This document shows positions 53,204 through 64,000 of a DNA stretch of 64,000 nucleotides, piece after piece. Both the position numbers and the translations under genes were made by a program. The stretch covers positions 13,888,001-13,952,000 of the forward strand of contig NC_042998.1 in assembly GCF_006345805.1 (NCBI RefSeq), written 5' to 3'. The notes beneath the pieces are model-generated. The model had not been told where the DNA came from. It searched no databases and saw only the letters and a list, made by a program, of their open reading frames with translations. The first letter of the stretch is position 1. The number at the start of each line of letters is the position of its first letter. Origin of the DNA: Octopus sinensis (lineage: Eukaryota).

Positions 53204-53925
53204 GCAGATACGGATGTGTGTTTAAGAAGCTCGGTTCGCATTCAGATAATTCGAGTTCAATTTTACTTCACATCACCTACAAAAATTGTCTTACTCTATA
53301 GCTGCGTGTTAACTAAAGATTGTGAGTGAATTTGGAGGATGGAAACTGCATGGAAGCATGTCGTGTACATATATATATATGTTATACGTTTTATTTATTA
53401 CTTTGCACATTACTTAGTCATCGTTATATGCTGTATCTTATGTTTAATCTTTCTATAATAAGTAATTTTTCTAAATGGTACAATTTAATTTTTCATTATT
53501 GAATTGATAAAAGGTGTTTTTTTTTCTAATTTATATATATTGTGAAATTTGATTTAGTATTTCTCAATTGAATTTTTCCCTGTAAGTTTGGAATAGTATT
53601 CCCTCATATTATTACTATTATTATTAATATTATGTGTATATATATGTTTGTGTGTGTATAAAAGCGTGTATGTGTGTGTATAAAAGTGTGTATGTGTGCG
53701 TGCGCGTGTGTATGTACCTGTGCCTGTGTCTCTATTCGATCACTCCCACTTCTGGACAACCGGTATTGGTTTGATTTCATCCACGTTTATAGTGGTTCGC
53801 TCAAAGAGACCAAAAGAATGAATAACAGGTTGAAATGTATGTTTTGCGGGGGGGGGTCCATAATCTATGGCGGTGACCTAATGTGGCCACAATCCAATGA
53901 CTGAACCAAGTAAAAGATCAAAGAT
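53204..53925 (+). mobile_element. Degenerate SINE A with a PLE-type 3' end (53380-53615) inserted in its (TA)n
   Basis: SINE halves on both sides; insert end matches 63270-63316. Confidence 0.6.
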
Positions 53926-55039: not shown

Positions 55040-56275
55040 TCAGGTCATCCCATAAGTTCTGTCCGGATTTTGAATCAAGAAATTAAGTGATCAAATGTTA
55101 TATTTAATTGAAATTTAATCATCAATGTACTTTCCTTGATTATCTATGACTTCCTTCCATTTTTTACAAGCTTTTTAATCCCATCAATGTAAAAACTCTT
55201 TTGGTTTCAAAGCGAAGAACTCTGAAATGTCAGTTTCGACCTCCTCCTGGTTTGCAAAAGTTGTGTCCCCCAAACGAGTCTGTAAACTACGAAATAAATG
55301 GTAGTCTGAAGGAGTAAAGTCGGGAGAATAAGGTGGATGAGGAATTTTTTCCCAGCCAAGCTTTTCGATCTTCTGTGATGTGATCTTTGCAGTGTGGGGA
55401 TCACGCATTCTCCTGATAAAATATCACTCCCTTTCGATTCACTGAAGCAGGTCCTTAACGCTCTACTTGCTGACAGTAGACTTTAGGATTGATTGCTGCA
55501 TTAGGTTGTAACAATTCAAAGTGAATTACTCCTTTGTAATCCTACCAGATAGAGATAAGAACCTTTTTTTTTCCATGAAGTTCTCATCTCGGTTGTGTTT
55601 GAGCTTTTTTCCCTTTGACCAAACCACTGTTTACGACGTTTAACATTTCGATAGAAGATCAATTTTTCGTCACCAGTCACAAGTCTATCTAAAACGGGTG
55701 AAATGAGTTCGCGAGAATGGAGAGAATAGCAGATGTCAACTCGGGATTTGCGGTTGCTTTCGGCCAATTCAGGATGCACCCATTTTCCAAGTTTAGAAAC
55801 CTTTTCAAGATGTTGACGATGAACAGTTGCCAATTCTTCAACGGATAATGCAGGATTTTGTTCCTGTAATACCTCAAGGAGCTTATCATGAAACTCAACG
55901 TCCTTTTTGATCTTCATCTTCATGGCTGAAATCTCCAGTTCTGAATTATGCAAACCAGCTTCTGCAAGTTCTTTCATTCAAGCATTCTTTCCAATAAACT
56001 GAGTGTATGTTTCGAGTCGCTTCGGCTGCAGAGTTTCCTTTTTGGTACTCATAAAGCATTATGTGCTTCGAATGCTCTTTGGATCCTTCCATGTTAGAAA
56101 GGGTGTTAATCAAAGAAATTTTAAATCTTTTATTCTGCAAAATAATATTTAATTAGTTTAAATGTACACAAATGCCTAAATATAATTTTTCATTCCATTC
56201 GTCATTATAAAATACTATTAAATTTCATTCAATTTTAAAAAAGTAAAATCGAAGAGAACTTATGGGATGACCTGA
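55040..56275 (-). mobile_element. Full-length mariner DNA transposon (1236 bp)
   Basis: TIR TCAGGTCATCCCATAAGTTCT / AGAACTTATGGGATGACCTGA; TA TSD at 55038-55039 and 56276-56277. Confidence 0.95.
55115..56092 (-). pseudogene. mariner transposase, frameshifted
   Basis: MEGSKEHSKHIMLYEYQKG.., WVHPEL (WVPHEL), VTGDEK, HPPYSPDFTPSDYHLF, WKEVIDNQGKYIDD*. Confidence 0.93.
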
Positions 56276-61090: not shown

Positions 61091-61409
61091 GTGGAGGCGC
61101 AATGGCCCAGAGGTTAGGGCAGCGGACTTGCGGTCGGAGGATCACAGTTTCGATTCCCAGACCAGCATTGTGTTTTTTTGAGCGAAAACACATTTAGCTC
61201 GACGAGGCTCCGGCAGGGGGTGGTGGCGACCCCTTTGTACTCTTTCGCCCCAACTTTCTCTCACACTTTCTTCCTCTGTCTTGAGTAACGCTGCGATGGA
61301 CTGGCATCCCATCCAGCTGGGGAGAACCCATACGCCACAGAAACCGGGAAACCGGGCCCATGAGCCTGGCTAGGCTTGAAAAGGGCGCCTAAATAAATAA
61401 ATAATAAGT
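61091..61409 (+). mobile_element. SINE head C with (AAAT)n end
   Basis: GTGGAGGCGCAATGGCCCAG head; TSD ATATGTAGAG on both sides. Confidence 0.9.
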
Positions 61410-62387: not shown

Positions 62388-62622
62388 AAAAAAGGAAATA
62401 AATGCGCCTTTTTAAAGCCTAGCTAGGCTCATAGGCCCGGTTTCCCGGGCTCCATGTCGTATGTGTTCCCCAGATGGACTCATTTTTGCCAGCTGAGTGG
62501 AGTGGTGCAACGTGAAATGAAGTGTTTTGCTCAAGAACACAACGCGTTGCCCGATCCAAGAATCAAAACCACAATATTACGATTGATGCTGACACCTTAA
62601 CCACTAAGTCACGAGCCTCCAC
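62388..62622 (-). mobile_element. SINE head D with the tail of the 61091 head-C copy
   Basis: TSD AATTGAATACTA at 62376-62387 and 62623-62634. Confidence 0.9.
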
Positions 62623-62905: not shown

Positions 62906-62941
<36 letters not shown>

Positions 62942-62957
62942 ACCCAAACCCACAAAC

Positions 62958-62980
<23 letters not shown>

Positions 62981-62990
<10 letters not shown>

Positions 62991-63311
62991 TATTCGAGAC
63001 AAAACCACTATTTTGCAAAACAAACAAGGAAAGACTTAATCAATACATAAATTTTAATAAATAGTCAAAAAATTTGACACTGAATTATTGGAAGTCCACC
63101 TGAAGATTGTCGATCAAGACAAGAAACGATTGTAGTGGCGGTTTTTTTTACTATTTATTAAAATTTATGTATTGATTAAGTCTTTCCTTGTTTGTTTTGC
63201 AAAATAGTGGTTTTGTCTCGAATAATATTTTATAATATTTTACTATAAAATCGATTTAATCCTAAATCTGATTTTTTCCCTGTAAATTTGGATTTATTCC
63301 CTAATATTTAT

Positions 63312-63316
<5 letters not shown>
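62981..63316 (+). mobile_element. Palindromic PLE-type insert with hammerhead in the spacer
   Basis: Arms ~62981-63072 / 63142-63234; 3' extension to 63316; (TA)n-CCCAAACCACAAAC-(TA)n repeated on both sides. Confidence 0.85.
63096..63138 (+). ncRNA. Type I hammerhead ribozyme, complete fold
   Basis: CCAC-CTGAAGA-TTGTC-gatcaa-GACAA-GAAAC-gatt-GT-A-GTGG; predicted cleavage after 63134. Confidence 0.85.
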
Positions 63317-63356
<40 letters not shown>

Positions 63357-63357
<1 letters not shown>

Positions 63358-63807
63358 CCCAAACCACAAACTATATATATATATATATATATATGTATAT
63401 GTATATATATCTATATTTATCCATATATATGTGTATCTTTAGGATTAAATAAAATGACAACAAACACAAAAATTACATATATGTACTTTGAAAAAAACGA
63501 CTAGAAAATAATTAGTTGCCACACGTTTTCTTTTTCATTACATATATAGGTAGCTTATATTTTCCCTTTATGGTCTTTGTATTTAATCCGGAATATATTT
63601 ACATAAGGCACACACTCACTATATTTTTTACCTATGCATATATATATTCACATATATATGTGTGTGTGTGTGGTGTGTGTAATAGATATATTTATGCGTA
63701 TGTCTATATATATATGTCTCTATATACTTTACTGAAGAGCAGTAAAATATCACAAAGTCTGTTACTAAACTGTGTGTTTGTGTGTACTATATGTGTGTGT
63801 GTATATA

Positions 63808-63863
<56 letters not shown>

Positions 63864-64000
63864 CAAACCACAAACATATATATATATATATATATATGTA
63901 TATGTATATATATCTATATTTATCCATATATATGTGTATCTTTAGGATTAAATAAAATGACAACAAACACAAAAATTACATATATGTACTTTGAAAAAAA
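63357..64000. repeat. ~504-bp tandem duplication running off the window
   Basis: 63357-63498 is repeated at 63861-64000. Confidence 0.85.

Follow-up and report, generated by a model that had tools for sequence, protein, structure and literature searches.

Here, we report that a hammerhead-bearing hairpin in a 64,000-nt stretch of the Octopus sinensis genome (the whole stretch is called the window below) is a by-product, in effect ordinary debris, of a known clade of Penelope-like elements (PLEs). We consider it likely that this copy is a PLE insertion made by reverse transcription of a spliced 5' leader mRNA, and that the hairpin consists of two cDNAs lying head to head. The most informative part of the copy is its spliced junction, which would fix the template as sense and spliced for the octopus PLE family. 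The relevant features of the window are listed here, those of the ribozyme and the flanks being read from the sequence itself and the others by reference to the family and to a long parent copy, L079.

62943 to 62957, plus strand: host flank motif between two (TA)n tracts, left copy of a possible target site duplication (TSD); not a family feature
62958 to 62984, no strand: left (TA)n target tract
62981 to 63072, minus strand: second copy of the terminal segment, inverted and without the tail, mirroring 63143 to 63234, with a family-fixed outer end and a variable inner end
63071 to 63086, plus strand: remnant (nt 8-23) of the parent's 23-nt exon 1; L079 has the same exon, then GTAAGT
63086/63087, plus strand: spliced exon 1/exon 2 junction; the parent has a GT-AG intron at this point
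63096 to 63099, plus strand: 5' strand of stem I, CCAC
63100 to 63106, plus strand: core, CUGAAGA
63107 to 63111 and 63118 to 63122, plus strand: stem II, UUGUC/GACAA
63123 to 63127, plus strand: GAAAC; the loop after the stem III strand is GAUU
63132 to 63134, plus strand: GUA site, predicted cut at 63134/63135
63135 to 63138, plus strand: 3' strand of stem I, GUGG
63139 to 63234, plus strand: remainder of the PLE terminal segment; its end, where tail-less arms stop, is the presumed second start of reverse transcription
63235 to 63314, plus strand: PLE "tail" of about 80 nt; in full-length copies the ORF start codon lies about 55 nt further on
63314 to 63357, no strand: right (TA)n target tract
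63358 to 63371, plus strand: flank motif, right copy, with which a tandem duplication of about 503 bp begins; a third copy lies at 63862 to 63875

The type I hammerhead spans 63096-63138 on the plus strand and has a CUGANGA/GAAA core, an NUH site and three stems with stem I open; no other stretch of the window, on either strand, matches the type I descriptor. All of its parts were found where a preliminary description of this DNA had placed them, and the near-perfect inverted repeat of that description is equally real, its arms (62981-63072 and 63143-63234) pairing over 92 nt with one mismatch (fold z = -24.8). The ribozyme does lie between these arms as described, but it does not fill their spacer exactly, which also holds a 23-nt leader 5' of the hammerhead. 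Stem III has 2 bp and a self-complementary loop, ACGAUUGU, the 10.1-11.1 pair is U-A, and Rfam at gathering scores returned no match to the hammerhead. The insertion measures 330 bp, and a MITE was rejected as its identity because the length of the arms is not constant and about 80 nt of the element lie outside the right arm, up to about 63314.

The 43-nt hammerhead has 1,607 exact matches in the genome (none for the reversed control) and a relaxed pattern has 4,528, while a DNA search of the 2.72-Gb assembly gave 1,575 candidates, 40 of which were scored. Fixed outer ends bordering on (TA)n are common to the 30 top loci, whose centre is variable and whose flanks differ in every case. A unit of about 5.7 kb was recovered from the long loci L079, L077, L149 and L150, which were picked from widely spaced hammerhead pairs. 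Full-length copies have the order exon 1, intron, hammerhead exon, tail, reverse transcriptase (RT)/GIY-YIG ORF, 3' region and, once more, exon 1, intron, hammerhead exon and tail. The ORF, known from frameshifted pieces, contains RIKWK, SDKT, YRDD, CTCRDKSNC, VYKC..VYIG and CYLC..E..N..CRH; YRDD and VYKC..VYIG mark the RT and the C-terminal GIY-YIG domain of EN+ PLEs. A partial tandem, an inverted 5' copy, a tail at one end and a hammerhead in the repeat are further EN+ traits of the element. Its identity to homologues is 32-38%, and one of these (P0002) passes the Pfam GIY-YIG cut-off; two pieces of the parent ORF gave no real Pfam match, and no intact ORF was present among the long loci translated. 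Locus L073 (1070-2863) has an asparagine-rich insert between RT and endonuclease, as do rotifer Penelope ORFs in the available part of PMC3846280.

The element resembles the Hydra clade, as characterized in the accessible portions of PMC8557442, in having RT followed by GIY-YIG, DKT, a CxCx5C linker, CxxC and CxH around E and N in place of CCHH, a hammerhead, (TA)n targets, an inverted 5'-truncated copy and a tail. It differs in unit length (about 5.7 kb against "generally <3 kb"), in the tail (about 80 nt against 30-40) and in the RWK motif, which reads IKWK (RIKWKA) in the octopus. Judged by motif comparison alone, against the description and alignment rows in that part of PMC8557442, the window hammerhead is part of the terminal segment of a Hydra-clade PLE that measures 5.7 kb and inserts in (TA)n. 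The accessible portion of the supplement of PMC8557442 did not contain the hammerhead and ORF start of the octopus family, and the text at hand makes no mention of an intron or of spliced short copies in Hydra.

In long copies the hammerhead exon is directly preceded by a pyrimidine-rich tract and TTTTTAG, a position taken in the window by AATTTGACACTGAATT instead. In L079, AATTTGACACTGAATT is found 1.3 kb upstream as the end of the 23-nt exon, followed by GTAAGT. The window junction joins this GTAAGT-donor exon exactly to the TTTTTAG-acceptor exon, and the GT-AG intron is gone, as it is from many hundreds of other copies; the template of the window copy was therefore likely the spliced 5' part of RNA from the element itself. 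The intron is 1,298-1,829 nt long in the long loci, with one of 2,835 nt, and none of these 11 loci has the spliced form (seven of them came from the unspliced list). Genome-wide, the spliced junction has 1,395 matches versus 709 for the unspliced acceptor, with none for the controls, and exon 1 with its donor has 587; these are counts of matches and not of sites, many of which have two. All three donor exon-1 variants recur in short copies, and sister subfamilies with different hammerheads have spliced and unspliced forms at the same position (20 loci). Such precise splicing excludes an antisense template for the spliced short copies, and the junctions imply that their template was a sense, spliced RNA. 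Extending the junction 7 nt upstream of +1, the presumed transcription start, left 21 matches, and 8 of the 12 inspected run well upstream; these rare intronless copies (L124 and L182-L185) suggest that the internal copy of the intron is sometimes spliced as well.

Sequencing runs point in the same direction, although they are contigs only guessed to be RNA, in which neither the start site nor cleavage is visible. In one of four such runs (X12) a contig skips 1,309 nt with CT..AC ends, which DNA copies could also supply. Depth at the acceptor falls from 413 to 43, from 1,008 to 165 and from 458 to 35 in three of the runs, with varied loose ends, and shows no comparable fall in a DNA run (527k to 365k). 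Separately, a contig in X11 and X12 departs from the element exactly at the predicted cut site (L079:843) into foreign sequence; since GT comes directly after that site, the contig can be explained equally well by a cryptic splice donor.

The 99 listed chromosome-1 matches to the spliced junction correspond to 65 sites, all of which were examined. Head-to-head pairs of one tailed and one tail-less arm make up 48 of them, the others being tail-less singles (8), tailed singles (4) and complex arrangements (5). The ORF is entered at none. All but one of the 65 (L124) stop inside exon 1 with no match upstream of +1, and 24 reach exactly +1; selection for the junction builds in 5' ends at +16 or earlier but does not force a stop at +1. 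At the other extremity, 57 arms end at the tail end. Of the 48 pairs, 27 have arms of equal length, 12 a longer tail-less arm and 9 a longer tailed arm; the hammerhead lies in both arms in 40 pairs, in the loop in 7, and is cut in 1. The hairpin stems from a second copy, inverted, tail-less and variable in length. There is no support for the reading that the hammerhead sits in a loop on purpose, so as to free a dsRNA stem; both arms derive from the same end of a retroelement.

The same spliced template could also yield such structures if a single tail-primed cDNA folded back and primed its own second strand, later central deletions then shortening the arms. Near-equal arms in 27 of the 48 pairs and perfect palindromes centred on +1 (for example L064) agree with this, and antisense self-priming has been proposed, and left open, for PLE inverted repeats (PMC3846280, in the part available). 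The antisense version cannot yield precisely spliced copies, however, and neither the 8 tail-less singles nor the 12 pairs with a longer tail-less arm, which together favour two cDNAs, are readily explained by folding back. In the chimeric locus L074, considered below, host exon extends about 800 nt further in the tail-less arm than in the tailed one. Since palindrome centres are unstable, unequal arms could reflect later deletion or assembly error. On balance, we regard fold-back as unlikely.

It is less probable still that the short copies form a non-autonomous family of SINE or retrozyme type that propagates itself, descended from a few spliced masters and moved in trans. Their high copy number is compatible with such a family, as are the few loci (L005/L009, L080, L244) at which the short unit occurs as a tandem dimer, and non-LTR retrozymes have been proposed as PLE derivatives in the accessible part of bioRxiv 10.64898/2026.07.22.740005. 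Against it, the central junction differs widely among copies, the variants in short copies are the same as in the long subfamilies, and the arrangement is mostly one of head-to-head pairs or singles and not of head-to-tail arrays. The metazoan retrozymes, as far as described in the same preprint and in PMC7229834, are likewise short, non-coding and PLE-end derived with a type I hammerhead, but form head-to-tail arrays, whereas the octopus copies are dispersed. A non-LTR retrozyme was rejected as the identity of the window copy itself, which has one hammerhead, 60 of the 65 sites being single or head-to-head.

Under the preferred reading of two cDNAs, transcription would begin in exon 1 (+1) and the cap-proximal intron would then be spliced out. 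Splicing of first introns is assisted by the cap. By analogy with what the available part of PMC11167929 describes for PAc/Poseidon in vitro, the RT-endonuclease would nick both strands of a (TA)n tract, and target-primed reverse transcription would begin at two internal RNA positions bracketing the tail, one per DNA strand. In the copies, one arm is seen with the tail and the other without it, and neither passes +1 or enters the ORF. The two cDNA ends would anneal through short stretches of homology and so form a palindrome whose centre varies; in the window, one cDNA would have stopped short of the hammerhead and left the ribozyme in the loop. Long copies would arise when reverse transcription begins in the 3' repeat; the intron copy located there, far from the cap, would rarely be spliced, so that long copies keep the intron. 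The hammerhead would be a passenger in the short insertions.

Two primers at one target are familiar from LINE-1 twin priming, in which a 5' inversion is joined at microhomology. The twin-primed LINE-1 arms copy different parts of one RNA, whereas both arms of the octopus PLE come from the same part. The closer counterpart is PAc/Poseidon, where, in the available account, both strands are cut and extended in AT-rich DNA from two internal starts bracketing the tail (PMC11167929); the two fixed 3' ends and the common 5' limit of the octopus copies fit this scheme. The head-to-head spliced copies may be viewed as the genomic counterpart of these starts, and from them the likely start site and the two priming sites can be placed with a precision of a few bases, which makes the mechanism directly testable. 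PAc/Poseidon belongs to a different clade, and spliced templates and the origin of inverted arms are not addressed in that part of the paper. Its hammerhead is dispensable for insertion and protein-assisted, according to the same part of PMC11167929.

Activity of the hammerhead at the window locus is unlikely, as judged from secondary-structure models. The predicted probability of its fold is 0.017 for the hammerhead by itself, 4e-4 once the leader is added and 2.5e-6 in the context of the whole element, the leader pairing in the predicted fold with the cleavage-site strand and disrupting stems I and III. This pairing was entertained as a switch and dropped, other exon-1 variants lacking it on inspection. 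A 2-bp stem III with a palindromic loop, as found here, characterizes the dimer-dependent hammerheads of metazoan PLEs, whose monomers were inactive in vitro in the accessible data of PMC4209133; PLE hammerhead cleavage was seen only with PLE protein in those of PMC11167929. The ACGAUUGU self-duplex is predicted at -5.8 kcal/mol, and with such a stem III the window hammerhead should, by prediction, cut solely as a dimer or when assisted by protein, one or the other being likely needed. Fourteen sister variants, in which the core was fixed by the search pattern, keep stem II as UGUC/GAC with very different loop lengths. The stem III octamer is fully self-complementary in 12 of the 14, across ACAAUUGU, ACGAUUGU and ACGAUCGU, which suggests that the parent RNA has been selected for a ribozyme acting as a dimer.

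A model built on the preliminary description would have the locus transcribed and a monomeric hammerhead opening the loop to leave a functional 92-bp dsRNA. In its favour, the core and GUA site are intact, and at this locus one arm only carries the hammerhead. We nevertheless give it very little credence: its geometry occurs in just 7 of the 48 pairs, the fold is improbable in context, stem III is short, the 10.1-11.1 pair is unpaired in 12 of the 14 sister variants (paired in 2), and depth shows no step at the predicted cut site, in contigs that cannot show ends. In the 40 sampled pairs with a whole hammerhead in both arms, the ribozyme would be fully base-paired.

The acceptor of the element has also joined host exons. 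In L074 (G000:C1:96557579-96559792) both arms carry two host exons from C1 at 88.52 and 88.59 Mb; a 69-kb GT-AG host intron is removed and the GTAAGT donor of the last exon is joined exactly to the PLE acceptor. This insert is an inverted-repeat retrocopy of the 5' end of a host mRNA after splicing; it matches its source (L094/L095) at 98-100% identity and has a 53-codon frame whose 53-aa product has no match in Pfam. In L195/L196 (G000:C3:162.24 Mb) three mapped C4 exons (L232, L233, L256) with GT/AG ends are joined at the PLE acceptor. Both arms of L196 have the spliced host sequence at the acceptor, host introns of 38 kb and 6 kb having been removed, and one 31-nt piece between the mapped exons has no mapped source. 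The centre of L196 holds an inverted piece of another repeat with a periodicity of about 404 bp.

A pattern for AG-ending exons at the acceptor gave 30 matches at 22 sites, 20 with foreign upstream DNA and 2 PLE-derived. Good candidates for chimeras are only the 7 of the 22 sites whose two arms share their foreign DNA; the single-arm cases may be plain truncations. Three of the 22 sites were traced. Four chimeras were traced altogether, two mapping fully, L210 partly (a partial 91% match only) and L191, which has a rhodanese-like stretch (Pfam E 1.6e-4), not at all, no source locus being found. Further foreign sequence at the acceptor, mostly in both arms, was observed in L191, L192/193, L197/198, L199/200, L202/203, L205/206, L209/210 and L236. 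Within 200 kb downstream of either host gene no acceptor-bearing PLE was present, just short acceptor-less copies. In Adineta vaga, too, host sequence has been moved in trans with PLE ends, but the host gene kept all its introns in the available account (PMC3846280), whereas in the octopus 69 kb, 38 kb and 6 kb were removed and a host donor joined to a PLE acceptor. The chimeras illustrate a route to processed, inverted retrocopies.

Genomic PLE copies are unusual in keeping introns after retrotransposition, the reason being unknown according to the accessible part of PMC8557442. The Drosophila virilis element Penelope, as covered by the available parts of PMC2377424 and PMC4209133, resembles the octopus PLE in its internal start site, short first exon and 5' UTR intron ending just 5' of hammerhead helix I. 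Most of its transcripts are spliced, and its 75-nt intron is retained in genomic copies, whereas in the octopus intronless leader copies outnumber intron-bearing ones. These observations can be brought together in a tentative joint reading, to which we assign slightly less than an even chance. Two internal starts on a capped, spliced sense RNA would give palindromic, intronless stubs by the hundreds, long copies would inherit an unspliced second intron, and the acceptor would trap host exons that the RT scatters in inverted form. That the exons were trapped in cis from since-lost copies, or else by trans-splicing, is a part of this reading that we hold just as provisionally. If true, it would solve the paradox of intron retention in PLEs with no need for an antisense template, and near-perfect inverted host mRNA 5' ends would be ready-made hairpin-RNA genes against the source gene. 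In the literature searched, which covered few subscription papers and neither the 2003, 2005 and 2006 PLE papers nor Repbase, no description turned up of PLE copies in spliced form or of retrocopies trapped by the acceptor.

Identity of 93.5-99.6% to 50 sampled copies (median 97.4%) bears out the earlier suggestion of a young insertion into (TA)n, which borders both ends in 55 of 61 sites. The flank motif CCCAAAC(C)ACAAAC, then likened to a TSD, is indeed present on both sides (62943-62957 and 63358-63371), but it is not a family trait, exact flank duplications of at least 9 nt occurring in 2 of the 61 sites, and its third copy (63862-63875) heads a tandem duplication. The exact-duplication test missed the window locus because its flank copies have a 1-nt indel, and the motif is a possible TSD of this insertion. 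The duplication of about 503 bp (97% identical), which begins at the flank motif, covers window positions 63373-64000 and L039:305-1369 and may be real or an assembly artefact. Host flank is duplicated and inverted on the far side of the insertion in L019, L038 and L067.

Other repeats were noted elsewhere in the window. An old fragment (79%) of a related PLE tail lies beside a TA tract at 53569-53645. Inverted repeats of 68 nt (84%) at 61321-61388 and 62404-62471, about 1.1 kb apart, are arranged like a non-autonomous DNA transposon. A 153-aa frame with VTGDEK on the minus strand (55516-55977) resembles what we take to be a mariner transposase remnant.
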